In this document: in pieces, positions 3,156-58,417 of the stretch
How the letters are laid out: the number at the start of each line of letters is the position of its first letter
How positions within the stretch are numbered: the first letter of the stretch is position 1
NCBI GenBank assembly: GCA_028821995.1
Contig: JAPKEQ010000001.1
Location: 5,620-69,619, forward strand
Length of the DNA: 64,000 nt
Direction: 5' to 3'
DNA from: Alphaproteobacteria bacterium
Lineage (GTDB): Bacteria > Pseudomonadota > Alphaproteobacteria > UBA2136 > JAPKEQ01
Program-made: the position numbers and the translations under genes
Notes under the pieces: model-generated
What the model saw: only the letters and a program-made list of their open reading frames with translations
What the model was told of the DNA's origin: nothing
Database searches by the model: none

Positions 3156-3266
3156 TTTTTCCCCTGATTTCTCCCCTTAAAGAGAGTTTCTTATTTTTTA
3201 TGCGTTGAATGTTTTAACACGGCATGAGGCTGCCGTCAGGCCATTTTTAGAAAAAGGTGTAAAGAA

Positions 3267-4226
3267 TTAATTACGCAGGTTCTCTGCAGAGGCAATCTTA
3301 GAAGATGCCTTCATCGCTTTTAGGTTTGCCGCATAACGGCGCATACGTGTTTTATCTGCCTTAATAAAGGCATAAGGGTTCACTTTCACTCCGCCCACAA
3401 GCACTTCAAAGTGCAGGTGCGGCCCAGTTGAACGGCCAGTACTCCCCATAAGGGCAATTGTATCACCAGCTTTAACTTTTTGCCCGTTCTTCGCGAGCGC
3501 TTTATTCAGGTGGCCATAACGGGTCACAAAACCGCCCGGATGCATGACTTCTACCATTTGACCATACGCAAAGCGGTAACCAGAAAAAGTCACAATACCG
3601 TCTCCACTTGAAACAATCGGCACGTTCCAGCCGCCACCAATATCAACGCCAGAATGCCATTTTTTCTTTTTGTTAAATGGATCCGTACGGTAACCGTAAG
3701 CAGACGTCAAACGTGTACGGTCACTAATAACAGGCCATACATTGGGTTTTGATGAACGGTTTAGGTATGACTTGCTCACAAGTTCAAGCGCATCTTCCAT
3801 TACACCGTCTAGATCTTCTGTCTGGTGTTTAAGCTGAGCAAACTGCTCTGTTAGCTCATCTAAAGAAACTTTTTTATCAAGGGCTGGCTTTTCAGAGCTC
3901 CCCTGTCCTTCAATTTCATGAACATGGTCTTCAAGCATATCGCCAATTTCGTCATCATTGAAGAGCTTCTCTCCAATCATATCAAAACGATCGATCTTAG
4001 ACTGCATCACGCCAATTTCTTCGGCAAAAACTTTAATTTGCTCATCAGCCATTGCGTTTTCACGCTTAATGCGAGCAAGCTCTTCCTTAAGGGTTTCAGG
4101 GTTTGCAGAAACCATTGGCAAGCTAAAACCATGCCCATCTTCTCTAACAAGGCCAAAAACAACAAGAGCCCCACCAAAAACAAGAGCGCAGAAGCAATAA
4201 AAACTTCTGAGGGTAAGGGCGCGCAT
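3267..4226 (-). CDS. M23 family metallopeptidase (LytM domain) with N-terminal TM and coiled-coil region (EnvC/NlpD-like)
   Basis: C-terminal HSGVDIGG...GSTGRSTGPHLHFEV motifs (HxxxD and HxH of M23), with an N-terminal hydrophobic segment and a charged coiled-coil region. Confidence 0.85.
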   Translation of the reverse strand: MRALTLRSFYCFCALVFGGALVVFGLVREDGHGFSLPMVSANPETLKEELARIKRENAMADEQIKVFAEEIGVMQSKIDRFDMIGEKLFNDDEIGDMLEDHVHEIEGQGSSEKPALDKKVSLDELTEQFAQLKHQTEDLDGVMEDALELVSKSYLNRSSKPNVWPVISDRTRLTSAYGYRTDPFNKKKKWHSGVDIGGGWNVPIVSSGDGIVTFSGYRFAYGQMVEVMHPGGFVTRYGHLNKALAKNGQKVKAGDTIALMGSTGRSTGPHLHFEVLVGGVKVNPYAFIKADKTRMRRYAANLKAMKASSKIASAENLRN

Positions 4227-4509
4227 AGACGAAGTTTCCCCAAGTGCAATATTGAGGTAAAGCCTATGATTCCAAATGCTTTTTAGTTTATTAATGGTCT
4301 AATCCAACTTTTAAATAAACAAGTATATCTCTATGTATTAGGTACACCTTTTACCATAGAAACTATGCACAGTATATGCCTAATTAAACCGACTCTCCAA
4401 ACTTTATGATCTTTTTTGGCTTATAATTCGGATTTCGCCCTTGCGTTTTTGTCACAATAAAGGCAACCTTGTGAGCAATTAAATAATAATAAAGACAGGT
4501 GCATTTCCT

Positions 4510-5304
4510 ATGACTTTAAAATCAGCATTATTTGCGACAACAATTCTAGCACTTTCATTGAGTGCATGTGGCGGCGAATCAGGCACGGTAGTTGCGCGTG
4601 TCAACCATGATAAAATTACACAAGAGCAAGTTGAAGCACAGCTTAAAGACATTCCTGCTGAGCTCATTGAGCAGCAAGGCGTAGAACTTAAAGAGCGTAT
4701 TCTTAACAACCTTGTTGAGCAGTCTTTGCTTGTTCAAGCTGCTAAAAAAGAAGGCATTGAGTCTGACAAATCTTTCAAAGAGCAAATGGACTCTATACGC
4801 ACACAGCTTCTTACACGCATGGTTCTACAGAAAAAAGTTGACCAAGCAGCTAACGATGACGCACTTATGGGTCTTTACGAACTTGAAAAAGAAAAGTACG
4901 CACAGCCTCAGCTTAAAGCGCGTCACATTCTTGTAAAAACAGAAGATAAAGCTAAAACACTTATCAGCAAGCTTGCTGGCGGTGCTGACTTCGCAAAACT
5001 TGCAAAAGAAAACTCAACAGGTCCAACTAAAGACCGTGGCGGCGACCTTGGCTGGTTCCGTCCAGCAGATATGGTTCCTGAGTTCTCGAACGCTGTAAAA
5101 GAACTGCGTAAAGGCGAGTATGCTAAAACACCTATCCAAACACAGTTTGGCTGGCATGTTGTTAAGCTAGAAGATACTAAAGCACCTGAAGCACCTACCT
5201 TTGAAGAGCTTAAGCCAATCCTTAAGCAACGTATTACGCAAGTAACAATCGAAGGCTACATGCAAGAGCTTAAAAACAAAGCGGATATCACGCTTGTTGA
5301 GTAA
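4510..5304 (+). CDS. Parvulin-type peptidyl-prolyl cis-trans isomerase lipoprotein (PpiC/PrsA/PlpA-like)
   Basis: Lipoprotein signal (LALSLSACGG) and a C-terminal PpiC rotamase domain (ARHILVKTEDKA...GGDLGWFRPADMVPEFSNAV...FGWHVVKLED). Confidence 0.85.
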   Translation: MTLKSALFATTILALSLSACGGESGTVVARVNHDKITQEQVEAQLKDIPAELIEQQGVELKERILNNLVEQSLLVQAAKKEGIESDKSFKEQMDSIRTQLLTRMVLQKKVDQAANDDALMGLYELEKEKYAQPQLKARHILVKTEDKAKTLISKLAGGADFAKLAKENSTGPTKDRGGDLGWFRPADMVPEFSNAVKELRKGEYAKTPIQTQFGWHVVKLEDTKAPEAPTFEELKPILKQRITQVTIEGYMQELKNKADITLVE

Positions 5305-6067
5305 GTTCAAAAAAATACCAAAACAAGCCGTACACCTTTGTGCGGCTTGCTTGCTTTTAGGTTGCACGCAAGTGCAAGAAGCGCCTGTAGAGAAGCCTGT
5401 AGAACAAGAAAATGCCAAACACTCTTACCTGTTTTCTGTTCAGCCACAATCTCCTCATGCAGAATTTAGCACAGCTCTTCAAAATGAGCTTAAAGCTGAC
5501 CCTCTGTTTCTTGGTACTCATGCAAGGGATGCTGGCCAACTTATCATTTCTGCAATACCTCAAATTCAAATTGACCCACTCAACAGGTCAAGAACACCAT
5601 CCTTTGGCAAGCTTGCCGCCCAAACTGTTGCACTTGAAATTCAAGTTCCTTATACATTGAGTACTTATAACGACCAAGTTTTGCACTCAGGAGAAATTCG
5701 TTACATCACAGAACCACTTCCTGTCATATCCCCAACAGTCACCATTCGCCCAGATATTCCAAAAGAAACATGGGAAGATATAAGCTCCATGCTTTTAACA
5801 GATGTTTCACCAGCCCTTGGGAATATCCCGTGGAATGCCCAAGTGATAGGCATTATTGATAGCGATCATGCCATTCTTAATATTGGCAAGGAAAGCAGAC
5901 TGCCTGCTCGCACCATCATGAAAAGCAGCGACATAACTGCCACCTTTGCAGAAATCGTGATTTATGAAAAAAATGATAGAGGTACAAGCAGAGCAGTCCT
6001 TAAACATATCAGCGGACCACCTTTTGCATCAAACATGTCATTTACACCTGTAGTTCCTTCTCAATAA
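5294..6067 (+). CDS. Hypothetical lipoprotein
   Basis: 257 aa ORF with a lipobox-like signal (CAACLLLGCTQ). No recognisable domain. Overlaps the upstream PPIase gene by 11 bp (co-transcribed). Confidence 0.55.
   Translation: MLSKFKKIPKQAVHLCAACLLLGCTQVQEAPVEKPVEQENAKHSYLFSVQPQSPHAEFSTALQNELKADPLFLGTHARDAGQLIISAIPQIQIDPLNRSRTPSFGKLAAQTVALEIQVPYTLSTYNDQVLHSGEIRYITEPLPVISPTVTIRPDIPKETWEDISSMLLTDVSPALGNIPWNAQVIGIIDSDHAILNIGKESRLPARTIMKSSDITATFAEIVIYEKNDRGTSRAVLKHISGPPFASNMSFTPVVPSQ

Positions 6068-21998: not shown

Positions 21999-22003
<5 letters not shown>
21975..22003. terminator. Rho-independent terminator (bidirectional position)
   Basis: aaaaagaggccttcgggcctctttttag. Confidence 0.8.
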
Positions 22004-26431
<4,428 letters not shown>

Positions 26432-32038: not shown

Positions 32039-32449
32039 ATGCCCATACTTGAGTCTGAGCAGCAACTCATTGATAATTTTGAACTATTTGATAACTGGGA
32101 AGATCGGTACTCATACCTTATTGATCTTGGTAAAAAACTTCCCCCTATGGCAGAAACTCTTAAAACAGACGGGGCTCTTGTAAAGGGATGTACAAGTAAA
32201 GTATGGCTCGTTCACACCTTAAATGGAAATAAACACACATTTTTGACAGACAGCGACGCTCATATTGTAAAAGGCATTTTATATGTTTTACTCTGCCTGT
32301 TTAATGGCAAAGAAAGCACTGAAATTAAAAACATTTCCACTGAAGAGTTCATGAAGAAAACAGGCCTTGAAGAAGCCATTTCCCCAAACAGAAGAAATGG
32401 ACTCAGTGCTGTCGAACAAAAAATTAAAACTTATTCAGAAGATGCCTGA
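32039..32449 (+). CDS. sufE: Cysteine desulfuration (sulfur acceptor) protein SufE
   Basis: 136 aa with the conserved active-site Cys context ALVKGCTSKVWLV and the SufE N-terminus (LIDNFELFDNWEDRYSYLIDLGKKLP). Confidence 0.88.
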   Translation: MPILESEQQLIDNFELFDNWEDRYSYLIDLGKKLPPMAETLKTDGALVKGCTSKVWLVHTLNGNKHTFLTDSDAHIVKGILYVLLCLFNGKESTEIKNISTEEFMKKTGLEEAISPNRRNGLSAVEQKIKTYSEDA

Positions 32450-33045
32450 TCTTCAAAAAGGTCTTTTGCATCAACATTTAACAGGTAATCCAAATCCTTT
32501 ACAGCCTGATAAAACTTGCCTGGCAGAGGGTAGCGTGTCACACGTTTTGTTTTCACATCAACAACAATAAGAGATGGATGGCTTGTCACTCTAAATTTCT
32601 TAGCCAGTCTATTTCCTTGGTCCATAATAGGCTCAGGTCTGGATTCTACACGCTCAGGTTCAGAAATATTTTTAAACTCCATCTGTGCATAGTCCTTCAA
32701 GAAGGCTCTAATTTTTTCTGTATAACCTGCTTTTTCAATAAGCTCCTCTTGGTCAAACCAACGGTCTAGCCTTGCATTCTCAACAGGATCATCATCATCA
32801 CTCGCCATAACTCGCTTTTTAAAATCGTCAAGTGCATCTTGTGGAAGGTCCTTCATTACCAGAGTGGCATCAATATCAGGATGCCAAGTCCAGTACTGAA
32901 CAAACTCAAAAATCCCTCCAATAGTAGTTTCCGAAGGATCTAAGAATAAAAGAATCTTATTCTTTTGTTCTTTTTCAGCAGCGTACAGAGAAGAAGCCAT
33001 CGCTCCCACCAGTACAAAAGTCATTATCAAAATCTTTTTCATCAT
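32431..33045 (-). CDS. Hypothetical secreted protein
   Basis: Signal peptide (MTFVLVGAMASSLYAAE). No confident domain. The 3' end overlaps sufE convergently by 19 bp. Confidence 0.5.
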   Translation of the reverse strand: MMKKILIMTFVLVGAMASSLYAAEKEQKNKILLFLDPSETTIGGIFEFVQYWTWHPDIDATLVMKDLPQDALDDFKKRVMASDDDDPVENARLDRWFDQEELIEKAGYTEKIRAFLKDYAQMEFKNISEPERVESRPEPIMDQGNRLAKKFRVTSHPSLIVVDVKTKRVTRYPLPGKFYQAVKDLDYLLNVDAKDLFEDQASSE

Positions 33046-33160: not shown

Positions 33161-35119
33161 ATGAGTGAGTCAATAGAATTATGCGCATTAAGAGAGGGGT
33201 ATTGGGACCTTATAAGTACTTACCCTCCCTCTCAAGAAGGTATCGCAATTAAAGAAGCTGCTAATATCCAAACAGGGTATGCGGCGGTTGCTGTGCTTTC
33301 TGTAGAAAAAATGCACATCGCTTATTACATTACACTTAGAAATATTCCCAAGCCTACATACTATGATATTAGAAAAAGTGTAAAAGCTGAACGTCCGACC
33401 ATGCGTCAAAAAACAAAACCTAAAAAAACTGCTAAACCTGAAAATTCTCAGCATACAACAACGTCAGCATCTGTAGAGAACACACCTAAACCTGTAGCCG
33501 CAGCATTAGAAGATACTCATGAGCTAAGCTTTTTTGAAAAACTTATCGATTCACTGTTTTATCTGCTTACAGGAAAACATGTGAAAGAAAGCCCTCACTC
33601 TAAAACACAAGAAAAAGAGAGCCGTGCAACTTCTGTTACCTCCCAAGATGAACAAACCTTATCAGGTGAACCGGTAACAGCTTCTCAACAAACAGAAGAA
33701 AGCACTCTTGAAAGCCTTCTAGAAACGCAACTTGAAGAAAAATTGGATGCCAATCCCCCCTCTGAAGAGGCAGTGCCAGATGAAGAGGAAATACCCGATA
33801 CAGCACAAGCACCTGATACACATGAAGAGACAAAGGCACCACAACCTCAAGCCGAAATTTCTGCTAAAAACCCTTTCAAAGCAAAGGAAGAGCATAAAAA
33901 CACTTCCAGCCCTCTTATGCAACCGCCAGAGCGCGAAAAGAAAAACGCTGCTCTTAAAAATACAAAGGCTAGCCTGCCCAAAATTGGAGGGGGACATATT
34001 CCAAACCCTTCAACTCCACAAAAATCACAAAGCACACAAGATACAGGCACAGCTTTTTGGAACAACATTGCAGAAGATGATGATGATTTTGAAAGCATAC
34101 GTCTTCAAATTCAAAAAAGCTTATTTGGAGCCATTGAACGCGCCAAGCAGCTGGCCTGGCTACCAGAACAAAGCACAATGCGTGGCACACTACAGCTTGC
34201 ATCTATTCTTCTTATTTGCGGTATTGGTAGAAAACTTTGCTCTCATGTTGGCGTCCCTGGTGGGCTTGGCAATCAAGTCATTGCAGATACACTTGAGCAA
34301 CTCGGCCTTTCTGATAAGCAAGCTTTTATCTGCGCACTCCACGTAGATCGAATACTCAGCGATCATAAAAACAACCTCATGTATCTTATTGGCCGCGCCT
34401 ACGGAGCCAACATTTTAAACGACACGGAGCAGCGCATTGACTTGCTCAGTATTTTTAACGCATGGGAAGCTAACGAACTTGAAAAATATTTTGACGTTGA
34501 TGAAGAAAAAAACACAGCTAAACTATCTAAACTGCCTTATCTAAAAGCAATTTCTATTCTCCTTACTGACATTGTGAACTTCACAGGTCAAAGCAATGAA
34601 AAAGGTGAAAAATGGGTTAAAGATGTTGTACATGCCCATAACCGCATGACAAAAACAATAACAGTCCATCAAAAAGGAGAGTATATCCAAGGAACTGGTG
34701 ATGGCGCCCTCCTTATTTTCACATCACCCCAAGCTGCAATGCATGCCGCCCTGGAGCTTCAATTTATGCATCAAAATTTCTGCAGGCGTGTGGCAAGTAG
34801 ACATTTTGATATTAGAGTTGCCGTAAGCCACGGTATTCCTATTCAAACACAGTCAGGTTTGCATGGTCCTCCTATTGAAGAGCTACATATGATCCATAAA
34901 GAAATGGGTGATATTGGCATTGCTGTAACAAAGGGCATAGCAAATATTGCAGAGCAACACGGGTTCCAATTTAATTTAAACGAAGAGACAGCCTTCCCCA
35001 TTTATGAATTTACAACATACACAGGAGCTCATACAGTAAGCGACAAAGACCAGACAAAAGAACAACACGCTGAAACTCCCGCAGAGAAGATGCAAGAAGA
35101 AGGACAACAACACGTATGA
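33161..35119 (+). CDS. Class III nucleotidyl cyclase-domain protein A: novel N-terminal domain, long acidic low-complexity linker, C-terminal cyclase domain that appears degenerate
   Basis: C-terminal LLTDIVNFTG...GEYIQGTGDGALLIF...FDIRVAVSHGIP matches the class III cyclase homology domain. The GxxVNxAAR transition-state motif is absent. Residues 80-300 are E/P/Q/T-rich. Confidence 0.8.
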   Translation: MSESIELCALREGYWDLISTYPPSQEGIAIKEAANIQTGYAAVAVLSVEKMHIAYYITLRNIPKPTYYDIRKSVKAERPTMRQKTKPKKTAKPENSQHTTTSASVENTPKPVAAALEDTHELSFFEKLIDSLFYLLTGKHVKESPHSKTQEKESRATSVTSQDEQTLSGEPVTASQQTEESTLESLLETQLEEKLDANPPSEEAVPDEEEIPDTAQAPDTHEETKAPQPQAEISAKNPFKAKEEHKNTSSPLMQPPEREKKNAALKNTKASLPKIGGGHIPNPSTPQKSQSTQDTGTAFWNNIAEDDDDFESIRLQIQKSLFGAIERAKQLAWLPEQSTMRGTLQLASILLICGIGRKLCSHVGVPGGLGNQVIADTLEQLGLSDKQAFICALHVDRILSDHKNNLMYLIGRAYGANILNDTEQRIDLLSIFNAWEANELEKYFDVDEEKNTAKLSKLPYLKAISILLTDIVNFTGQSNEKGEKWVKDVVHAHNRMTKTITVHQKGEYIQGTGDGALLIFTSPQAAMHAALELQFMHQNFCRRVASRHFDIRVAVSHGIPIQTQSGLHGPPIEELHMIHKEMGDIGIAVTKGIANIAEQHGFQFNLNEETAFPIYEFTTYTGAHTVSDKDQTKEQHAETPAEKMQEEGQQHV

Positions 35120-36624
35120 GCATTGACCTCTGCATTTTAAGACAAGGCGCTTGGGAAATTCATTCTACTTACTCTCCGGGAGAGTCAGAAAAAGCCGTAC
35201 AAGATGCCATTCGCTACAAGCAAGAAAAAGCCTACACTGGCGTTGTTGTTATTGATGATAGAACAAAGAGCGTTTTATACGGCTATACATCTTCTGGAAA
35301 ACCAGCATTTGACACAGTGGTAAAAAGCCTTAAAGAAGGCAAAAAAAACCTACGTGTTCAAAGCATGCAAACAAACATGAAAAACAAACCTGCAAAACAA
35401 GCCGCAAGCCCAAGCACCCCAAACCCAATCCAAACCAACAGCAAGCTTAACTCTGTCATGAGCGTGAGTATGCTATCTCTCATTATTGCCGTTACCATTT
35501 TTATGGTTCTACTCAACGTATTTAATGATCTTACCTCAGCACTTGTTGGCGCTATTTTTACAGCGGTATCGGCACTTATTGCATTTAAAATAGCAAATTT
35601 TGACCCCAGCACATCCATTGAAACTGTCGCTAAAATTGTTGCTACAAAAATGCACATCGGAGCTTCTGCCGAAGCACTTGATATGGAAAATGACAACTTA
35701 AGCATTAAAGATCACATTCAAAATGTTGTAGATTCCGCCGTACAAGGGGTTTGGAATGAAGAGCAAGAAGAAGCACCAAAAGAATCTGCGCTTGGCATTA
35801 TTCTTTTATGCTCTGGCGTCATAGAACATATCCACCAGGCACAAAACTACAAACGTCTTGTACTTATTGAAATGGCGAGCGATATCATTGAAGACTCTAA
35901 ATTCTCAATTCCCAAAGCAAGCACTGTCGCTTGCTACAAAAACATACTTGAATACCTTGCCTATCCTCGTTATTCCAGCATGTACGACATGGGGTATCAA
36001 CTTTCTAAAAAATTCAGCGCTAGCAAGGATACTGAAACCCTTAACTTGCAGGTTAGCCAAGCTTTTGAAGCTTGGTCCTCTCATCAAGATGTCACAGCAA
36101 GCCACAATGCGGCCGCAGCCATTTTATTTACAGATATTGTAGATTTTACATCCACACATCAGGACCGTGGAGATAACTGGATGATGCGCATATTAAACGC
36201 GCATAACGATGCCGTACGCGAAGGCCTCCATGTTACTGGCGGACGGGAAATTAAACACACAGGAGATGGCATCATGGCATCCTTCCAGTCTGTTAAAGAT
36301 GCCCTTGATGCTGCTATTGTTGCACAACGTAAAATTAATGAATTTAACATTGCCCATGAATCTGAGCGCTTTGAAGTACGTGTCGGCATTAGCTATGGAG
36401 AGCCTGTACACATCGGAGGTGACCTTTTTGGGACACCTGTAAATAAGGCCGCTCGCGTTCTTTCTAATACTCATGGAGAAGAAATTGCAATGTCTTCAGA
36501 AGCCTGGCTTGAAGCAAAGAGCTACGGATATACTGCAAAAGAAACAACTGGGGTTGAATTCAAAGGATTTGATGGCATTCACAGCCTCTTTAAGATCAAT
36601 TGGAAAGAGGCTGAGCAAAGCTGA
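35116..36624 (+). CDS. Class III adenylate/guanylate cyclase B (paralog of A): shared N-terminal domain, TM segment(s), intact cyclase domain
   Basis: ILFTDIVDFTS...IKHTGDGIMASF...FEVRVGISYGEPVHIGGDLFGTPVNKAARV carries all class III catalytic motifs. Its start overlaps the stop of A by 4 bp. Confidence 0.88.
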   Translation: MSIDLCILRQGAWEIHSTYSPGESEKAVQDAIRYKQEKAYTGVVVIDDRTKSVLYGYTSSGKPAFDTVVKSLKEGKKNLRVQSMQTNMKNKPAKQAASPSTPNPIQTNSKLNSVMSVSMLSLIIAVTIFMVLLNVFNDLTSALVGAIFTAVSALIAFKIANFDPSTSIETVAKIVATKMHIGASAEALDMENDNLSIKDHIQNVVDSAVQGVWNEEQEEAPKESALGIILLCSGVIEHIHQAQNYKRLVLIEMASDIIEDSKFSIPKASTVACYKNILEYLAYPRYSSMYDMGYQLSKKFSASKDTETLNLQVSQAFEAWSSHQDVTASHNAAAAILFTDIVDFTSTHQDRGDNWMMRILNAHNDAVREGLHVTGGREIKHTGDGIMASFQSVKDALDAAIVAQRKINEFNIAHESERFEVRVGISYGEPVHIGGDLFGTPVNKAARVLSNTHGEEIAMSSEAWLEAKSYGYTAKETTGVEFKGFDGIHSLFKINWKEAEQS

Positions 36625-50560: not shown

Positions 50561-52258
50561 ATGGACATTGTCGATCTCATGATCAGTGATCAGGTGATCA
50601 ACATAGCAGACCTACAAGGTCTGCCTGTTACTGTGCAAAAAGATCCGGAACAACTTATTGATGCCCTTGGTAAGGCCGGTAAGCTTTCTGAGATGCAACA
50701 GTCTCGTTACAAAGCTATCGCTTATGATTACCCTGTCAGAACAGACGAAGAAATGTCCCGCACCACACCTCACCAAGTGGACGGGGTCAACGCTGACTTT
50801 ATGAATTTTTATACGGCCTGCCCTATTGAACTTGGGCGCGGTGCGATCACTTGGGCTTCCGCAGATTTACCAAACAAACGTCTACTGAGCGAAATTGTAC
50901 TCAGGCACCGTAAAAACAGGCACCAATTTGTATGGGCTTCTGCAAAGTCTATTGAATCTGCAATTGAGCGCATGTCTAAGCGTGAAGGGCACTCTCTCAA
51001 ATTCCTTGTAGAAACTGCCTATGCACAAATTAACGCGGGTAATGATGATGCAATTGTCCACCTTACTGATGAAATCATCAGAACAGCTTACAAAAACAAC
51101 GCATCAGATCTACACATTGAAATCTTGAACCGTAAACCTACGGTTATGGCGCGTATTGATGGTGAACTTGAAGAACTTGTACCGCTTCCTATTGAAGTTT
51201 ACGAGCGTGTTGTTGGTCGCTTACGTCACATGGCCGGTGTACGTGCTGAAAACTATAAAAAACCGCTCTACGGACGTATGACATTTGAACTTTCTGCTCG
51301 CCAGCATATTGATATTCGTTATACAACGCAGCCAATTACCCTTGAGAGCACGGCAAAAATTGCAATGCGTTTCCTAAAACCGTTTGAAGGTAGTATTGAT
51401 AACTTCGGTTGGCGTAAAGACAGTATTGGCAGGCTTGATGTTCTTATGCGCTTTGAGGAGGGATGTATTATTTTTGCAGGACCTACGGGTTCTGGTAAAT
51501 CAACAGGCGCACGTATGATTATTCGTCGCGGTCAACGCCCGGGTCAAAACGTAATTTCATACGAAAAGCAAATTGAGGAACGTATGGATAACGTAATCCA
51601 AACGGAAGAAGACCTTAGTGCAGGACTAAACCTTGAATCCTTCATGTATGCTGCACTTGGTCTTGACCCTGATGTTCTCTTTATTGGTGAGGTACGTAGC
51701 CCAGAAGATACGCGCCGATGCATTGATGCAGGTAACCTTGGTCACCTTGTTATTACAACCATGCACGCCAACGACACATTTATGACCCTTGACCGTCTTG
51801 TGCAGCGCGGTGTGCCTGTGGAGCAAATTTTCTCTAATGTTCGCGGCATTATCGCCCAAAGGCTCGTTAAAAGGCTCTGCAACAAATGTAAAGTTCCACT
51901 TGAACTTGATGCTGAATTTACGGAACAGCTGAATAGTTTACGCCCCCTTGATTTTAAAGAGGGTGACGTTATTTATAAAGCCAATGTTAATGGTTGTGAA
52001 CATTGCCGCCATAGAGGGTATATTGGCCGTATTGCTATCGAAGAAATTTTAGAGTTATGGCGTAAAGATATTACCCGCAACATTTGGACAAGCACAGCGC
52101 TTAGACCTGATTGGATTGATATTATCCGTAAGCAAGCTGTAGAAATTGGAATGCCTGATATGCTGACGCAGGGTATTTCTCAAGTAAAAACTGGGGTAAC
52201 ATCCCTTGAAGAACTAGAAAGATTTTTCAGTGCAGATTTGGAAACAATTCAGTCGTGA
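50561..52258 (+). CDS. GspE/PilB-family type II/IV secretion ATPase
   Basis: Walker A FAGPTGSGKST, Asp-box region DIRYTTQPITLESTAKIAMRFL, Walker B/His-box VLFIGEVRSPEDTRRCIDAGNLGHLVITTMHANDT, and a tetracysteine zinc motif CNKC...CEHCRHRGY. Confidence 0.88.
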   Translation: MDIVDLMISDQVINIADLQGLPVTVQKDPEQLIDALGKAGKLSEMQQSRYKAIAYDYPVRTDEEMSRTTPHQVDGVNADFMNFYTACPIELGRGAITWASADLPNKRLLSEIVLRHRKNRHQFVWASAKSIESAIERMSKREGHSLKFLVETAYAQINAGNDDAIVHLTDEIIRTAYKNNASDLHIEILNRKPTVMARIDGELEELVPLPIEVYERVVGRLRHMAGVRAENYKKPLYGRMTFELSARQHIDIRYTTQPITLESTAKIAMRFLKPFEGSIDNFGWRKDSIGRLDVLMRFEEGCIIFAGPTGSGKSTGARMIIRRGQRPGQNVISYEKQIEERMDNVIQTEEDLSAGLNLESFMYAALGLDPDVLFIGEVRSPEDTRRCIDAGNLGHLVITTMHANDTFMTLDRLVQRGVPVEQIFSNVRGIIAQRLVKRLCNKCKVPLELDAEFTEQLNSLRPLDFKEGDVIYKANVNGCEHCRHRGYIGRIAIEEILELWRKDITRNIWTSTALRPDWIDIIRKQAVEIGMPDMLTQGISQVKTGVTSLEELERFFSADLETIQS

Positions 52259-53324
52259 TGCTTTAGGCCCTCGGGTCACGGAAATGCGTGCACGCGACCG
52301 TGAACGCATGTTTTTCCTTATGTATCAAATGCTTAAATGTGGTCAAACCACAGAGTCAGCTGTGCGTGCCGTTGCAAAATCTTTTAGATCAGAAGGTAAA
52401 GAGGATATCTCTGCTGCACTTCATGCTATTGCTCAAAAAGTTGCCCAAGGAAAGCCTATGAGTAAATCCATGGAAATGGAATATGTTATGTTTGACGATG
52501 TTCACCGCGCCGCTGTTATGGCAGGGGAAGCCTCAAACTACATGACAGAATCTTTTCATATTTTACAAGTTTTAGAGGATAAAAAAATTGCAGCTTCGCG
52601 CGCTGGGTTGGCTGAACTCCTCACACCTATGCTTATGCTTTGCTTCAGTTTATTTTCTATTTTTAATACAGGCCTTAACACACTGCCTGTCCTTACACAG
52701 CTAAAAACTGCCCAAGGAAAAAAACTTGGCGTAGCACCACGCATGGTTATGGATATGACTGGTTGGTGCGCAGAGCACTGGCATATCCTCCTTGCAATCG
52801 GAATTACCCTTGCTGTGACAGCTTATGCAGGTATCAAATCAACCCAAGGACGATTCTGGTTAGATTACTACACCCTCCGCGTCCCTCTTATGGGTAAGTT
52901 TATCCGCTATAAAACCTATGCAAACATGCTGCTTTATTTTCCGCACCTTGTAGAAAGTGGCGTAAAACCAAAACAAATGATTCCAATCATGGAAGCCATG
53001 TCGACGAATATTGTGCTACGCCGTAAAATTGATGCTTTTAACCAAGTTATTACCACAGGTGGTAAAATGTCTGACGCTATGGAAAAAGCTGGATTCCCTG
53101 GCCTGATTGTAACGCCTATTCGTGTATCAGAAAATTATGCTGGTAGTGATACAGGGACCAACGATGTTATGATTGAAGGTATGAACCATGCTTACTCTAT
53201 CTTAGAACGAGACCTAACTGATACGCACAAACGCTTTATTGGCACGTTCTCGGTTATTTTATGGTTAATGGGTGGTGGCGTCATGCTACTTGAGATGATG
53301 TCAATTGTACTTGCACAGTCGTAG
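52230..53324 (+). CDS. GspF/PilC-family inner-membrane platform protein. Start uncertain (52230 or 52284)
   Basis: Two cytoplasmic helical domains separated by TMs. The second repeat (RVPLMGKFIRYKTYANMLLYFPHLVESGVKP...GFPGLIVTPIRVSENYAGSDTG...ILWLMGGGVMLLEMMSI) follows the T2SSF pattern. Confidence 0.75.
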   Translation: MQIWKQFSRDALGPRVTEMRARDRERMFFLMYQMLKCGQTTESAVRAVAKSFRSEGKEDISAALHAIAQKVAQGKPMSKSMEMEYVMFDDVHRAAVMAGEASNYMTESFHILQVLEDKKIAASRAGLAELLTPMLMLCFSLFSIFNTGLNTLPVLTQLKTAQGKKLGVAPRMVMDMTGWCAEHWHILLAIGITLAVTAYAGIKSTQGRFWLDYYTLRVPLMGKFIRYKTYANMLLYFPHLVESGVKPKQMIPIMEAMSTNIVLRRKIDAFNQVITTGGKMSDAMEKAGFPGLIVTPIRVSENYAGSDTGTNDVMIEGMNHAYSILERDLTDTHKRFIGTFSVILWLMGGGVMLLEMMSIVLAQS

Positions 53325-53336
53325 GAGAAAAAAAGC

Positions 53337-54497
53337 ATGCCTATGATTAAAAGCCTTCTCGGACAACAGTTTAAAAACATCTGTTTTACTGGTTTGAACC
53401 GTGTGGAATACTTACCTGATGGGTCTGACCAGCCTATTTTTGGGGATAGTTGGCAAGACGTATCTGATGATCAAGCTCGCCGTACAATGTGCCTCGCATT
53501 TTTTGCACCAAGAGATCTTTCAGGTGAACCTGTTGATCCCGCATCAATTCTTATTGAGAATTACTCTGATGAGGACGTTCCTGATGCTATAGCAGCAGAA
53601 AGCATTAAACATATTCCTCTTATGGATTATTGCCGTATGCCACCAGCTGACTCAAACACCGTAAACTTTATTGTTGTGGCAGATGTCATCTTCCATTGGG
53701 ATATTAAAGATAACTACTTGCAGCCCACATCCCAGCTTACATGGGTACAAGATATTAAGGCCATTTTAAAATCTTACCCAAGGAGTTACACTAAAAACGT
53801 TTATACTAACTGGCAAAAAGATAAGCTTGAAGAGCTTCGCGTTAATGTTCTTCCGCTGAGAGAATCTCCTGTTTTTAGTGAAGTTTGGCTTAACATGCCA
53901 TCCTTTCAAGAAAAACACGGTAATATTATGCTAACCTTAGGTATCTTGGTATCTCTTGTAGCCTTTGCAATCACCTACATGCAAGATATGAAGATCAAAG
54001 AACTGCAAGATCAAAAAAGATCTGTCGTTACCTCTATGCCATCAGGGCAAAACTATTCTGTCCTCTCAAATCTGATCCGCACGCAACAGCAAAACATGTC
54101 CTATAGAGAGTATTTCCCATTCATACTAAAAGATATTTCGTACGCCATCCAATATTCAGGTATGAAAATTGATTCATTTGAATTAGAGGTCCCAAACCCT
54201 CAGGAAGCGCCTAAAAATCTCCTGCTGACAATTAATGCCAATAGCGATGCTTATGATGGATGGCTTGAGGAAGAGCCTGTGGCCAAATCATTCCTTGCAC
54301 TTAGCAGTACTGTTCAAGCTGTAAGGCGTCAACCTGGAAGCAAGAAAATGAAACTTGAAGGTATTATTCCCCTCATGTCTGCCATAAAAGAGATTCACCC
54401 TTACTTGCAGGAAGCAAGAAAGACAAGAGCCATTGGCAACCGTACTCTTGGTAATACCTCAGAGGAAAAAAACAAAGAGACTGGAGATGACTCATGA
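53337..54497 (+). CDS. Hypothetical bitopic membrane protein (GspL or PilM-N-like topology: cytoplasmic domain, TM, periplasmic domain)
   Basis: Single TM near residue 195 (IMLTLGILVSLVAFAITYM). Assigned by position in the cluster and by topology only. Confidence 0.45.
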   Translation: MPMIKSLLGQQFKNICFTGLNRVEYLPDGSDQPIFGDSWQDVSDDQARRTMCLAFFAPRDLSGEPVDPASILIENYSDEDVPDAIAAESIKHIPLMDYCRMPPADSNTVNFIVVADVIFHWDIKDNYLQPTSQLTWVQDIKAILKSYPRSYTKNVYTNWQKDKLEELRVNVLPLRESPVFSEVWLNMPSFQEKHGNIMLTLGILVSLVAFAITYMQDMKIKELQDQKRSVVTSMPSGQNYSVLSNLIRTQQQNMSYREYFPFILKDISYAIQYSGMKIDSFELEVPNPQEAPKNLLLTINANSDAYDGWLEEEPVAKSFLALSSTVQAVRRQPGSKKMKLEGIIPLMSAIKEIHPYLQEARKTRAIGNRTLGNTSEEKNKETGDDS

Positions 54498-54991
54498 TTC
54501 AGTTTACAATAGGCCTTGCACTTTTTGCTTTTGCCGCAATTCTTGGCACTTTTAAATCGTTTGAAAACGTGGATAAAATTCAAGTGACCCAAAATAGCTT
54601 GCAAAGCTCCATGAGGGATAGAGATCGCATCCTAAAAATCCAAACGGATATTCAAAAAGCAGTACGTGAAACACTTGAAGCAGGACAGGATCAGAAAAAC
54701 AATATTGAACGATTGTTTAACCTTGCTGAAAGAGATTTAGAGTTTAGCTTCATTGGTCAGCCGACTCAAAACCCCGCTGCACCGGGAATTTTTTATCACA
54801 CCTACAGAATTACCGGCATTGAAACCTATTCTAAAATTTCAGAACTACTAACCCTTATCGCTTCAACTCCAGGGTTTTCTGTGTATAAAACATGTTTTAA
54901 CTGCTCAAGAGTAAGCCGCGAGCTCAAGCCTGGCCACCACATGATTACAATAGAAGGGCATCTATATGTTCATAACCCACGCCAGATTTAA
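54494..54991 (+). CDS. Hypothetical bitopic membrane protein (GspM/PilO-like topology)
   Basis: N-terminal TM (LALFAFAAILGTF) and a periplasmic domain of about 140 aa. Overlaps its neighbours by 4 and 26 bp. Confidence 0.45.
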   Translation: MIQFTIGLALFAFAAILGTFKSFENVDKIQVTQNSLQSSMRDRDRILKIQTDIQKAVRETLEAGQDQKNNIERLFNLAERDLEFSFIGQPTQNPAAPGIFYHTYRITGIETYSKISELLTLIASTPGFSVYKTCFNCSRVSRELKPGHHMITIEGHLYVHNPRQI

Positions 54992-56111
54992 ACTTGCCCT
55001 AACAGCTTGTGCTATTACTGTTGTGACGCCAAGCCATGGCCAAACTATTTCTTGGCCAGATACATTTACAGGCCAGCCAGATTTTGAGTTTACGCGCACA
55101 GATATTGTAAAAGAAATTCAAGAAAAAAGACCTGAATCATTCTCAATATTAACAGGAAACCTTGATCGATCTCTCAGTACACAAGGGGTTAACCCCTTTT
55201 CCCCTAAAACATCTCAAAACCTTATTGAGATATATAGTAGATATAACGAGAACGAATCTATTGCTATTGAGCGCAAGAAAAATCCGGTTCCGCAAGCATA
55301 CGTAGGCTCTAGGCATCAAATTTTCCTTAGAACAGGTGAAACCTCTGGCGCTAATATTATTTTAAAGGATGGAGAGGTCTTTGCCATGCTATCTAGCGGC
55401 AAAATTCTCCCTATTGAGCTCGCACCCAACAATACCATTGTGGAATACGTGGCTACAACACAGATTTCAAAAGAAGAAATTATTGACCAAAAATTCCAAG
55501 ATCTTTTTGCTGGAAAACGCCTGTTTTCTGATACATCTGTAAATTTAGAAGAAGTTGATAGCAGACTTGCAGGTCTACAAACATATCAAGCAGATGGACA
55601 ACTGCCTGATTTTTATACAGATTCTCAAGGACGCCTTGCTCCCACAGAGTTCAAGCGCTTTTTAGAGAGGCTTTTACGCCAAACGCTACAAAAAGAGCAA
55701 AAAAACCTTGGCTTACAAGATTTCTCTCAAGATATTAAAAAGATCAAAATTGACAGTATTGTAACCTCACCATTTAAGTATGCTGTACTAGACGGTGAAA
55801 AATACAGCGAAAAGGAACGATTTTTCCTTTCTGTTCAAAGGCCTCAAGGACAAAACACTAACTTTAGAGCCATTGTAGAGCAATACATACCCCCTAAAGA
55901 TTCTATGGATGCGGGCATGCACCAATCTTTCTTAAATGAAGCCAATGGTGTTATTGAGCAATACGAAAGAGAGCTTGGCATAGAAGCAGGCACTGCGACT
56001 CGTATGGCAACCCATAAGATAGGGGTAACAGTAAAAGAAATTGGCCACAGAAAAGTTATTTTAACAATTGGTGACAGGGATTACCCGCTTAAAATTAACT
56101 TGGCTCTATAA
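54966..56111 (+). CDS. Hypothetical periplasmic protein of the filament cluster (not a secretin)
   Basis: Signal peptide ALTACAITVVTPSHG. No secretin C-terminal motif. Confidence 0.45.
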   Translation: MFITHARFKLALTACAITVVTPSHGQTISWPDTFTGQPDFEFTRTDIVKEIQEKRPESFSILTGNLDRSLSTQGVNPFSPKTSQNLIEIYSRYNENESIAIERKKNPVPQAYVGSRHQIFLRTGETSGANIILKDGEVFAMLSSGKILPIELAPNNTIVEYVATTQISKEEIIDQKFQDLFAGKRLFSDTSVNLEEVDSRLAGLQTYQADGQLPDFYTDSQGRLAPTEFKRFLERLLRQTLQKEQKNLGLQDFSQDIKKIKIDSIVTSPFKYAVLDGEKYSEKERFFLSVQRPQGQNTNFRAIVEQYIPPKDSMDAGMHQSFLNEANGVIEQYERELGIEAGTATRMATHKIGVTVKEIGHRKVILTIGDRDYPLKINLAL

Positions 56112-56114
56112 GAG

Positions 56115-56873
56115 ATGATGAAAGCAAAGCAAAGAAAACAAATGAAAATATTATGTCAAAAGGGTGGCTTTTCGCCATTCATGTTTGGCGTTCTGGCTGC
56201 GCTCTCTATTTTTAGTACCATGCTTGCTCAATGGGCAAAAGAAGACCTAAAACAGCTACAAAGCGAAAAATTAAAACGCCAGCAAGCACACTCTGAAGAT
56301 ATTAAAGAAGCCATTGAAATAGCCATCCTTTCAGAGAACAGCAACGTAGCTGGAAATAATTACAGCCAAACTTATGATATTGGCCGCGCACAAGGGTTTC
56401 TTTCATCCTCAAACAACACGACGCGCGGTGGAGCTGCCATTCAAATGCAAGAAGTTGATAGTAGTCAGGTTCAAGATATTCAAAACAAACGTATTGCAAT
56501 CAGCTCATCAGATGACACATTTCTGCGTACTGACGTGGCAGGGCTTGCAAACGAAGATGCTATAGCAGCTTATGACAGCGGCCTTGATGGCGCTATGGCA
56601 ACAGTAGATACAGAAGCTTTACGTAACCAGCAAGTAAAGCACTCAAGGCAACTCTTAGAAAAAGAAGCAAGCTTGCTTTATACATTCTTTACAGAAAACA
56701 GCAGGTTTCCCGCCAATCAAGGCGAGTACGATACTGATATAAACGCATTAACAAATTACAAAGATACCTGGGGAAATGACTTTACCTACACCTATGCAAG
56801 CGATACCGAAGCAACATTAGGTTTTACCACACCGTGGGGGAAAAGCTTTAACGTTCGTGTGGATATGAACTAA
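56115..56873 (+). CDS. Pilin-like protein (candidate minor pilin), prepilin-type leader QKGG|FSPFMFGVLAALSIF
   Basis: Basic leader ending in GG, followed by a hydrophobic helix of about 20 aa lacking Glu5. The rest is polar. Confidence 0.5.
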   Translation: MMKAKQRKQMKILCQKGGFSPFMFGVLAALSIFSTMLAQWAKEDLKQLQSEKLKRQQAHSEDIKEAIEIAILSENSNVAGNNYSQTYDIGRAQGFLSSSNNTTRGGAAIQMQEVDSSQVQDIQNKRIAISSSDDTFLRTDVAGLANEDAIAAYDSGLDGAMATVDTEALRNQQVKHSRQLLEKEASLLYTFFTENSRFPANQGEYDTDINALTNYKDTWGNDFTYTYASDTEATLGFTTPWGKSFNVRVDMN

Positions 56874-56893
56874 GAAAAACAAAGGAAAATAAT

Positions 56894-57802
56894 ATGATAC
56901 GTGCCATTGCAAAACGCTTAAAAAGCCAAACAGGTGCTGTTTTTGGTATGGATGCCCGTGTGGCACTTATTATTGCAAGTATTATGGCTGCAACAGGTGG
57001 TGTAACCGTACTTTCTCGTGTTGAACGTAATAAAAACGATGCTGCTGAACGCGGTATTGATTTACTTGTGAACGCCAACCTGAAGTACTACATCACAACA
57101 GGTATTAATACCATATCTCCTGATATTGCGACCCTATTTACATCTGGCGTTATGGAAGAAACATACCTCCAACAAGACCCGTGGGGCAACAACTGGAACT
57201 ATGTGATTGGCTCTACAAATATTGAAATTGAAGATGTGCCTGTCACCATGTGGTACGGTACTATTCATACAAGCGGTAAAGATGGCACAGATGACTCTGT
57301 AGCTATTGCATCTTATGCGAACTGGCAAGTATGGGAAGCCGCAGGTGATGATATTGGTATCAAATTTTCAACCACATCTATTGAAAAAGATCGCGTGGAG
57401 CTTTACAGAAAGCAAGGCCAAGAGATTTCTGACCGTCTCGCAGCTGTAGAAGCTGCATGGTACCTTGATGCAGATGGCGCTTGCACTGGCCCTGCGTGGT
57501 GTACAAGTGGTGGTAAATCTTACACAAACTTTAGTTACTATCCAATTTCTAGCCTTGATGCCAATGTCAACGTACAATATTTTGATGCTGTTTGTACCGA
57601 CACTGATATTGCAGGAACAACCAGCGCCTGTAATGATGTGACATACATAAGCGGGAACCAAGGCTCAATGGAAGCGCTATTAAACTTGCTTAACCTGCCC
57701 ATTAGCTATGCAACAGACCCTTGGAATCGCACTTTAAGGTATAACTCAAACCTAACAGACCGCGAAGATCCACCATTTAGCGCTCAGGTTTGGTATCAAT
57801 AA
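56894..57802 (+). CDS. Pilin-like protein sharing the N-terminal motif of the 49832 gene
   Basis: MIRAIAKRLKSQTG|AVFGMDARVALIIASIMAATGGVTVL, then Cys-containing C-terminal region (ACTGPAWCTSGG...AVCTDTDIAGTTSAC). Confidence 0.55.
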   Translation: MIRAIAKRLKSQTGAVFGMDARVALIIASIMAATGGVTVLSRVERNKNDAAERGIDLLVNANLKYYITTGINTISPDIATLFTSGVMEETYLQQDPWGNNWNYVIGSTNIEIEDVPVTMWYGTIHTSGKDGTDDSVAIASYANWQVWEAAGDDIGIKFSTTSIEKDRVELYRKQGQEISDRLAAVEAAWYLDADGACTGPAWCTSGGKSYTNFSYYPISSLDANVNVQYFDAVCTDTDIAGTTSACNDVTYISGNQGSMEALLNLLNLPISYATDPWNRTLRYNSNLTDREDPPFSAQVWYQ

Positions 57803-57805
57803 ACA

Positions 57806-58417
57806 GTGTTTGCATTTGAAAGACAGTTTCTCACAGAGGATGATATTTCTGAGGGGTTAATCCCAGAAAAGTTCCATATTATCCTTACAGGGCTGTTTTT
57901 TCTTATCTTTGGTGCACTGAGCCTTGCAAGCATAGCAACAGCAATGGAGTGCCTTTTTTGGGGGATAACAAGCCTTGTTTTAGCAAGGCTTATTGCCCTA
58001 GACCTTACAAACCATACACTTCCCAACATTTATATTGCTCCTCTATGTTGCTTTGCACTTATTGGGAGCCTTACAGGCATGCTTCCAATCACATGGCAAG
58101 ATGCTCTCTTTGGCGGAGCTATCGCATTCTCAAGCGTTCTTGCTCTTAGTTTTCTTATTGAATTTTTATTAAAATCTGCCTTTCTTGGCGGAGGAGATAT
58201 AAAATTCATAGGCGCATCAGGCCTTTGGCTAGGTTGGGGGCTTTTACCTTTTTACATGATGGTTGCCTGCTTTTTCACAATTATCATTTCTTTCCTCCCC
58301 AGTAAAAACAATCATATCGCCTTTGGCCCAGGGCTTTGCTTCTCTTTATGGCTGTTTTTGCATCAAAAAACTTACTTGATGGTCTTGATAAACAAGGCAT
58401 TTGCCTTTATATCTTGA
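57806..58417 (+). CDS. Prepilin peptidase, peptidase A24 family, short TadV/CpaA-like form (GTG start)
   Basis: Polytopic 203 aa with the second catalytic Asp motif LGGGDIKFIGASGLWLGW (A24 GxGDxKL). No N-terminal Zn-finger or methyltransferase region. Confidence 0.75.
   Translation: MFAFERQFLTEDDISEGLIPEKFHIILTGLFFLIFGALSLASIATAMECLFWGITSLVLARLIALDLTNHTLPNIYIAPLCCFALIGSLTGMLPITWQDALFGGAIAFSSVLALSFLIEFLLKSAFLGGGDIKFIGASGLWLGWGLLPFYMMVACFFTIIISFLPSKNNHIAFGPGLCFSLWLFLHQKTYLMVLINKAFAFIS

Follow-up and report, generated by a model that had tools for sequence, protein, structure and literature searches.

A predicted membrane-anchored class III adenylate cyclase and its degenerate soluble neighbour in Alphaproteobacteria: a possible two-gene, single-site heterodimer

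Introduction

The active sites of class III cyclases span the dimer interface, with a pair of Asp residues contributed by one chain and the remaining residues supplied by the other. The bacterial enzymes are generally regarded as symmetric homodimers with two equivalent sites, and one-site asymmetry is a hallmark of the animal membrane adenylyl cyclases and of soluble guanylate cyclase, where it is thought to have derived from a bacterial homodimer by duplication. Reviews of the mycobacterial cyclases have reportedly speculated that adjacent cyclase genes lacking some of these residues might heterodimerise. Here we analyse two overlapping genes, termed A and B, in a 64,000-nucleotide stretch of an alphaproteobacterial metagenome-assembled genome (MAG; assembly GCA_028821995.1, contig JAPKEQ010000001.1, positions 5,620 to 69,619), referred to throughout as the window. 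B has the features of a complete, membrane-anchored class III cyclase and A is a paralog that has kept only the metal-binding half of the catalytic residues, a combination that may constitute a two-subunit enzyme with one active site.

The solved structures closest to the catalytic domain of B are those of Ma1120 (PDB 4wp9 and others) and Rv1900c/LipJ (PDB 1ybt). For Ma1120, experiments have defined K101 and D157 as the substrate residues, along with R168 and with A164, which takes the place of the Asn (PMC4215837). B shares with Ma1120 the ATP-specifying Lys/Asp pair, the metal-binding Asp pair and the transition-state Arg, but it has the canonical Asn in place of Ala164, and both Ma1120 and Rv1900c lack the N-terminal domain (N domain), the membrane hairpin and the type of helical middle domain that are present in B. 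In the mammalian cyclases, C1 carries the metal-binding Asp residues and C2 the substrate and transition-state residues, so that one of the two sites is active and the other is a pseudo-site (PMC4174876). The A/B pair resembles C1/C2, and the alpha/beta subunits of soluble guanylate cyclase, in that A is a C1-type complement with which one active site and one pseudo-site would be formed. It differs in that C1 and C2 are parts of one fused polypeptide whereas A and B are separate overlapping genes, their heterodimer being predicted from the sequences; B, moreover, is not C2-like but keeps the full residue set, and neither protein has a six-transmembrane bundle or the cyclase-transducer coiled coil of the mammalian enzymes. 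Rv1625c/Cya of M. tuberculosis, regarded as a model ancestor of the mammalian enzymes (PMC9433096, PMC9552081), is likewise a membrane-anchored class III adenylyl cyclase in which a helical segment lies between membrane and catalytic domain. It is, however, a six-transmembrane homodimer with a coiled-coil helical domain and no degenerate partner, and it was not among the significant sequence matches for B.

The closest relatives in layout belong to a family of alphaproteobacterial cyclases, found in Thalassospira and other genera, of which we found no description in the literature, nor any of a natural bacterial cyclase pair with a degenerate partner. B has the layout of this family, as a short-linker member, and A has the same three soluble domains; family genes are usually single-copy and fully canonical, whereas the clade of the window adds the degenerate and hairpin-less A. 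An ordinary class III catalytic domain and an asymmetric residue split of the kind seen in C1/C2 and soluble guanylate cyclase are thus already known. What is new is that the split runs across two separate overlapping bacterial genes, that only one partner is degenerate, and that both belong to a family with two regulatory domains that are in no domain library. If a competent subunit and a metal-half-only subunit do work together here, the two would offer a natural and tractable bacterial model for the evolution of asymmetry and for the purpose of the pseudo-site. The family itself, with more than 1100 clusters that include cultured Thalassospira and Magnetospirillum and with some members split into two genes, marks a gap in the annotation of cyclic AMP (cAMP) signalling.

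Results and Discussion

A and B are overlapping tandem paralogs

Gene A occupies 33161..35119 (652 residues, MDE0723107.1) and gene B 35116..36624 (502 residues, MDE0723108.1), both as open reading frames (ORFs) on the plus strand, which also holds for every feature of A and B given below. The NCBI records, whose source is an alphaproteobacterial MAG, name A a 'hypothetical protein' and B an 'adenylate/guanylate cyclase domain-containing protein'. An earlier model-generated reading of the window from its letters (the sequence-only reading) had described adjacent genes with a 4-bp overlap, and this is exact: the stop codon of A and the ATG of B share the ATGA at 35116-35119. The motif AAGGA lies 11 nucleotides upstream of this ATG, within A, and translational coupling of the two genes can reasonably be inferred from the ATGA overlap. 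The N-terminal peptides quoted in that reading are present in both proteins, and the tandem paralogy that it proposed, including a related middle region, was confirmed by BLASTP, in which the N termini are 31% identical over 97 residues (E 3e-9) and the middle region plus cyclase domain 26% identical over 273 residues (E 9e-19), a sequence similarity far above chance.

Its assignment of both C termini to the class III cyclases was supported. Both pass the cut-off of 21.9 bits for PF00211 (Guanylate_cyc), B with 57.8 bits and A with 23.1 bits, although the match of A is marginal, exceeding the cut-off by 1.2 bits, and partial, being limited to profile positions 7-110 of 183 (about the first 60%), in a domain that is degenerate. 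Class III membership of A is separately backed by a match to Ma1120 (phmmer, E 2e-9). Among NCBIfam models, the A/B region matched the cyclase domain and nothing further.

The pair is flanked on one side by genes for an OmpA-like lipoprotein, SufE and a 204-residue secreted protein with no assigned family, and on the other by an Rrf2-type SUF regulator, sufBCDS and Fe-S carrier genes. The order SufE, unknown gene, A, B, Rrf2/SUF regulator, sufBCDS recurs in the related loci L001 (GCA_035092365.1, a 1.26-Mb contig) and L002/L003. B is 70% identical to window B in L001, where A and B are separated by 3 nucleotides, and 59% identical in L002 and L003, with an A-B overlap of 11 nucleotides in L002, so that a tight or overlapping junction is kept in three diverged genomes. 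Full-length homologs at greater distance (~30% identity) occur singly and in unrelated surroundings, and the A/B pair is limited to one small clade. Promoter and terminator scans around A and B gave no more matches than expected by chance.

A retains only the metal-binding half of the catalytic residues

Residue roles in A and B were anchored by alignment to Ma1120 and by the assignments made for that enzyme (PMC4215837). In a sequence search against the PDB, Ma1120 was the closest solved relative of B (E 3e-19), followed by Rv1900c (E 4.5e-8). The catalytic set of B is complete (metal-binding D340 and D384, adenine-specifying K380 and D436, transition-state N443 and R447, and K483, the phosphate Lys of the KG motif), and because K380 and D436 form the Lys/Asp pair, aligning to K101 and D157 of Ma1120, the predicted substrate is ATP rather than GTP. 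Neither A nor B has a Glu/Cys- or Glu/Gly-type guanylate-cyclase signature as defined in PMC4215837.

A keeps both metal-binding Asp residues, D470 and D514, and has substitutions at the positions of Lys (Q510), Asp (G566), Asn (E573) and Arg (M577), with no counterpart of K483 of B. The eight A sequences, which form five clusters and are 55-94% identical to window A, all show this pattern: both Asp residues are kept, the Lys, Asp and Asn positions are Q, G and E, the Arg position is M, I or V, and the KG motif is absent in all eight. Every A ortholog conserves the degenerate motif GLHGPxIEEL. Of the 169 family members examined, essentially all keep the full catalytic set as B does, with Asn or Gln at the position of N443.

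Thus the metal-binding Asp pair occurs in both proteins, and the Lys/Asp pair, the Asn and the Arg occur in B but not in A. Since these four residues are lost, a homodimer of A would have no complete site, and the view of the sequence-only reading that A is a second active cyclase did not survive this comparison, the substrate, transition-state and phosphate residues all being gone. The complement of A is strictly C1-type; complementarity between A and B is one-sided because B retains both sets. Of 33 family-conserved cyclase columns, A retains 16, and at this retention rate the pattern in which two C1-side residues are kept and five C2-side residues are lost has a probability of ~1% by simple arithmetic on columns that are not independent. 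The asymmetric degeneration of A had gone unnoticed in the sequence-only reading, as had the membrane anchor of B and the status of the middle region as a second unrecognised domain.

Domain architecture of B and A

The N domain of B spans residues 1-75 (35116..35340) by AlphaFold2 model and family hidden Markov model (HMM; E 9e-22). A Kyte-Doolittle scan placed a membrane hairpin at 35455..35595, consisting of a first transmembrane segment (TM1, residues 114-132, hydropathy score 2.57) and a weaker hydrophobic segment at about residues 139-160 that aligns with the second transmembrane segment (TM2) of the family, with a loop of ~8 residues between the two. The middle domain (residues 177-330, 35644..36105) is modelled as a six-helix bundle, is unrecognised, and matches the family middle-domain HMM with E 2.6e-40, B being within the alignment from which that HMM was built. 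The catalytic domain (residues 331-496, 36106..36603) was delimited by the Pfam match and the alignment to Ma1120. Judged by these features, B is a membrane-anchored class III adenylate cyclase of the alphaproteobacterial N-domain family. Because its N and middle domains are predicted to be cytosolic and its periplasmic loop is minimal, the architecture points to an input signal that is probably cytosolic or membrane-borne rather than a periplasmic ligand.

In A, the N domain also spans residues 1-75 (33161..33385; family HMM E 6e-21). The seed alignment of this HMM includes both A and B, which makes their E values partly circular, and the BLASTP match between the two N termini is independent of it. 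In place of the hairpin, A has an acidic, Pro/Ser/Thr/Lys-rich disordered linker (residues 76-296, 33386..34048), delimited by composition and ortholog alignment, about 220 residues long and with a high content of E, T, K, P, S and A; no hydrophobic stretch anywhere in A reached the Kyte-Doolittle threshold for a transmembrane segment. Conserved islands stand out within this linker, namely SFFEKLIDSLFYLLTGK (residues 123-139, 33527-33577), which would form an amphipathic/hydrophobic helix, and LPKIGGGHIPNP (residues 272-283, 33974-34009), whose core LPKIGGGH is invariant in five of the five aligned A clusters. Both are candidate membrane- or partner-binding motifs, and a further linker motif, KNPF, is conserved among the orthologs. 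The linker is followed by a divergent helical middle domain (residues 297-445, 34049..34495), for which the family HMM match (E 6.6e-11) is independent, A being outside the alignment used to build it, and by the degenerate cyclase homology domain (residues ~462-612, 34544..34996), delimited as in B. A full-length search for homologs of A recovered five clusters, all from the same clade as the pair. With the middle and cyclase domains as query and the linker omitted, no match of any kind was obtained, and no further A-type gene was confirmed in metagenome contigs searched with an alignment and then with a single protein.

Because synonymous sites have almost reached saturation when the window is compared with its relatives, selection was gauged by regional contrasts in nonsynonymous divergence (pN) and not by the ratio of nonsynonymous to synonymous rates. 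Compared with the L001 ortholog, pN of A was 0.12 in the N domain, 0.12 in the middle domain and 0.11 in the cyclase domain, which is 3-4 times below that of its linker (0.38 against L001, range 0.38-0.46). The corresponding values for B were 0.12, 0.24 and 0.14, so that the middle and cyclase domains of A are more constrained than those of B. Purifying selection on the folded domains of A is strong and no weaker than on B, and A is therefore not a pseudogene.

A predicted A:B heterodimer and its alternatives

Because class III sites form across the dimer interface with the Asp pair taken from one chain, a heterodimer of A and B would have exactly one complete site. We infer from the residue patterns, at roughly even chances, that A pairs with B as a lopsided two-subunit cyclase in which D470 and D514 of A, together with K380, D436, N443, R447 and K483 of B, would form the complete site, and in which the Asp pair of B, facing Q510, G566, E573 and M577 of A, would form a dead pseudo-site. 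Co-translation of the overlapping genes would supply both subunits together, and A could be recruited to the membrane by B through the N, middle and cyclase domains that the two have in common. The gene overlap and the conserved pairing are indirect signs that may speak for an A:B complex. Also in favour of this reading are the C1-type pattern of kept and lost residues in A, the purifying selection on its folded domains, the conservation of its GLHGPxIEEL motif and, in other MAGs, family genes split in two, whose modules can assemble from separate polypeptides. The simplest history of such a pair would be a tandem duplication that gave rise to A within the short-linker subfamily, since A and B are adjacent, A-type genes are limited to the clade with the pair, and A, B and their nearest relatives all have an N domain whose beta3-beta4 loop is shortened.

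Several observations weigh against the heterodimer. B keeps its own Asp pair and could in principle act as a homodimer without A, as an enzyme that is not C2-like. Conservation of D470 and D514 across five clusters of one narrow clade is weak evidence when taken alone, and both residues lie in structurally important motifs (TDIV and TGDG). The recent tandem origin of A is suggested by adjacency and by shared features of the N domain, but a neighbour-joining tree of the middle and cyclase domains did not place A within the family: A sits on a long branch, and its monophyly with B was recovered in 25 of 100 bootstraps. Over these domains the identity of A to other members of the family ranges from 18 to 26%. 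On the side of the heterodimer, complementary degeneration is hinted at by another tandem locus, L018, which comes from an alphaproteobacterial MAG obtained from horse faeces and has copies at 2064-3671 and 3726-5849. Here the first copy has TGYG for TGDG and has thereby lost the second metal-binding Asp while keeping K, D, Q and R, which makes it C2-like and would be the mirror image of A, although a single residue in a MAG is concerned; the second copy is canonical and is not matched by the N-domain HMM.

As the main alternative, A could be a non-catalytic pseudoenzyme, a regulator or adaptor that binds B, another partner, or a nucleotide or ligand in its remodelled pocket; it could, for example, act as a dominant-negative brake by sequestering B from active homodimers, or as a scaffold through its conserved linker motifs. 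With its complete residue set B needs no partner, the remodelled site of A (Q510, G566, E573, M577; GLHGPxIEEL) is conserved as it would be for a function of its own, short linker motifs such as LPKIGGGHIPNP, KNPF and the amphipathic helix are typical of interaction sites, and the strong purifying selection on the folded domains fits as well. Such a role is possible, if on the doubtful side: it leaves unexplained the survival of exactly the two metal-binding Asp residues amid replacement of all five opposite-side residues, and an A:B heterodimer would still contain one complete site unless its geometry were disrupted. That A and B act independently, with adjacency a mere footprint of duplication and A in an unrelated non-cyclase role, would suit the long branch and low identity of A and the different locations of a soluble A and a membrane-bound B. 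We consider this improbable given that overlapping or abutting frames are conserved in three diverged genomes and that A keeps all three family domains, including an N domain otherwise seen solely in the alphaproteobacterial N-domain/middle-domain cyclase family.

The two remaining explanations fare worse. Two active paralogous cyclases, producing cAMP and/or cyclic GMP and sharing a novel sensor domain, would account for the N domain in both proteins and for both passing the PF00211 cut-off, but A passes it narrowly and over part of the profile, has lost the Lys, Asp, Asn and Arg that a homodimer would need for a complete site, and carries no guanylate-cyclase signature any more than B does; we hold this to be very unlikely. 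The loss of catalytic residues and of the hairpin, along with the long low-complexity linker, might suggest a decaying pseudogene copy of B. To this we give next to no credence: the 652-codon frame is intact, intact orthologs extend down to 55% identity and include those of L001 and L002, and folded domains that diverge 3-4 times less than the linker, and less than those of B, effectively refute it.

Returning to the single-site heterodimer, a more speculative extension, about which we are rather doubtful, is that A and B represent a two-gene bacterial cyclase at an intermediate stage on the way to eukaryotic pseudo-heterodimers. On this view, duplication would be followed by degeneration of one copy and would lead to a single-site heterodimer that is either obligate or regulated, with the conserved pseudo-site serving as an allosteric ligand pocket. 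The N and middle domains would then represent two new kinds of cytosolic regulatory module, particular to a large and wholly unstudied family in alphaproteobacterial cAMP signalling.

A large alphaproteobacterial family shares the layout of B

Several thousand cyclase-domain relatives were retrieved with B as query, and those of ~500-700 residues start with the motif xFEVYxLQxGRWxIHAxY...EAIEEAKxL...VxVxRE that is common to A and B. When a profile of the N domain (an alignment of 50 sequences, ~75 residues) was compared with 1.84 billion representatives of clusters formed at 50% identity, 1148 proteins were matched at E <= 1e-3 and 443 at E <= 1e-10, with the match at the N terminus in every case. 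Among the best 150 matches, all proteins of about 500 residues or more also carry the middle and cyclase domains, and the shorter ones resemble truncated gene calls. Hydropathy analysis indicated two transmembrane helices between the N and middle domains in most family members. From the N terminus onward, the fixed layout predicted for the family is thus a cytosolic N domain, a linker, a transmembrane hairpin that is hardly exposed to the periplasm, a helical middle domain that is again cytosolic, and the cyclase domain. The N domain, hairpin and middle domain are all present in B; A has the N and middle domains and lacks the hairpin.

A scan of GTDB with one genome per species gave 80 loci, in 43 of which all three modules are encoded by a single ORF. 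These include the cultured Rhodospirillales Thalassospira lucentensis, T. mesophila, Paramagnetospirillum caucaseum, Magnetospirillum sp., Curvivirga aplysinae, Marivibrio halodurans, Telmatospirillum siberiense and Oleispirillum naphthae. The sequence-only reading had judged this architecture unusual for an alphaproteobacterium; with 1148 clusters and a single-ORF layout in 43 loci, cultured Rhodospirillales among them, it is instead the standard layout of a large family. Complete genes with N, middle and cyclase domains were also found under non-alphaproteobacterial labels in L014 (CP051228.1, 'Mesoflavibacter sp.'), L023 ('Patescibacteria group') and L030 ('Candidatus Sulfotelmatobacter'), for which mis-binning or mislabelling is more likely than genuine occurrence.

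Around the single-copy Rhodospirillales gene, synteny was observed in L091 (2303-10548) and in ~25-36 other loci of L020-L088. Genes for MotA/ExbB-like and OmpA/MotB-like proteins and a major facilitator superfamily transporter lie upstream, sometimes with those for frataxin CyaY (11 loci) and rpmE (36 loci), and an Hsp20 gene lies downstream (26 loci). Fe-S genes are also near the window pair, in the form of SufE and the suf operon. The Rhodospirillales synteny could reflect either a functional link or vertical inheritance.

The N and middle domains match no described domain

Precomputed Pfam annotation of the family members consists of PF00211 alone, and when 50 N-domain and 33 middle-domain sequences were compared with Pfam at E <= 1, no family was matched by more than one member. 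The N-domain profile found nothing credible among PDB sequences, the top match being a de novo designed protein. An AlphaFold2 model of the N domain of B, made from the 50-sequence alignment, has a predicted local distance difference test (pLDDT) score of 91.7 and a beta-beta-alpha-beta-beta fold with a clade-specific helix at residues 65-77; its Foldseek comparison with the PDB gave no match better than E 0.24. Matches of the N domain to folds like the Rubisco small subunit were recurrent but weak and below significance, and were set aside as a generic resemblance in topology. The middle domain, likewise modelled from its alignment with AlphaFold2 (pLDDT 90.9), is a six-helix bundle. A match of its profile to MntR among PDB sequences (E 0.02) was marginal and gained no support from the fold search.

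No sequence or fold match was found between the N domain and the described sensor and regulatory domains, including GAF, PAS, CHASE, HAMP and REC. The sequence-only reading had called the N-terminal module unrecognised, which agrees with these searches of Pfam, NCBIfam, the PDB and folds and applies to the middle domain too: as far as these tools can tell, neither domain is recognised by Pfam, NCBIfam or the PDB.

Other tandem and split family loci

Tandem copies were also found in L066 (3993-5915 and 6174-8195) and L088 (3870-5834 and 5985-7934), where neither copy has lost a catalytic residue or any of the three domains; the family gene has therefore been duplicated in tandem repeatedly. In at least six independent Rhodospirillaceae or alphaproteobacterial MAGs, two adjacent ORFs take the place of the single family gene, with the break exactly between TM1 and TM2 (L019, 3758-5651; L029, 3785-5654; L032, 3782-5654; L047, 3685-5591; L048, 3801-5672; L085, 3753-5648). 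The first ORF of each encodes the N domain, linker and TM1, and the second encodes TM2, an acidic linker and the middle and cyclase domains. Family modules can therefore assemble from separate polypeptides, and the N domain can be a separately encoded, membrane-tethered subunit.

Other genes in the window

The 204-residue protein next to the pair (32431-33045, minus strand) is transcribed divergently from gene A, has a signal-like hydrophobic N terminus (MMKKILIMTFVLVGAMASSLYA) and gave no Pfam or NCBIfam match. L001 and L002 have at the same position a minus-strand ORF of 196-219 residues, also with no Pfam match, the likeness being one of size and position. A Pfam scan of about 60 ORFs of the window detected neither a cAMP receptor (cyclic nucleotide-binding protein) nor a phosphodiesterase. 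The remainder of the window is mostly housekeeping genes, including those for SecA, LigA, RecN, BamD, EF-G and S7. A cluster resembling those for type II secretion or type IV pili (50561-58417, plus strand) encodes a T2SSE ATPase, a T2SSF platform protein and an A24 prepilin peptidase, and inside it five successive ORFs at 53337-57802 have no Pfam match at E <= 1e-5. A Stf0-type sulfotransferase gene (21999-22724, minus strand; Pfam E 3e-56) adjoins ligA and recN.

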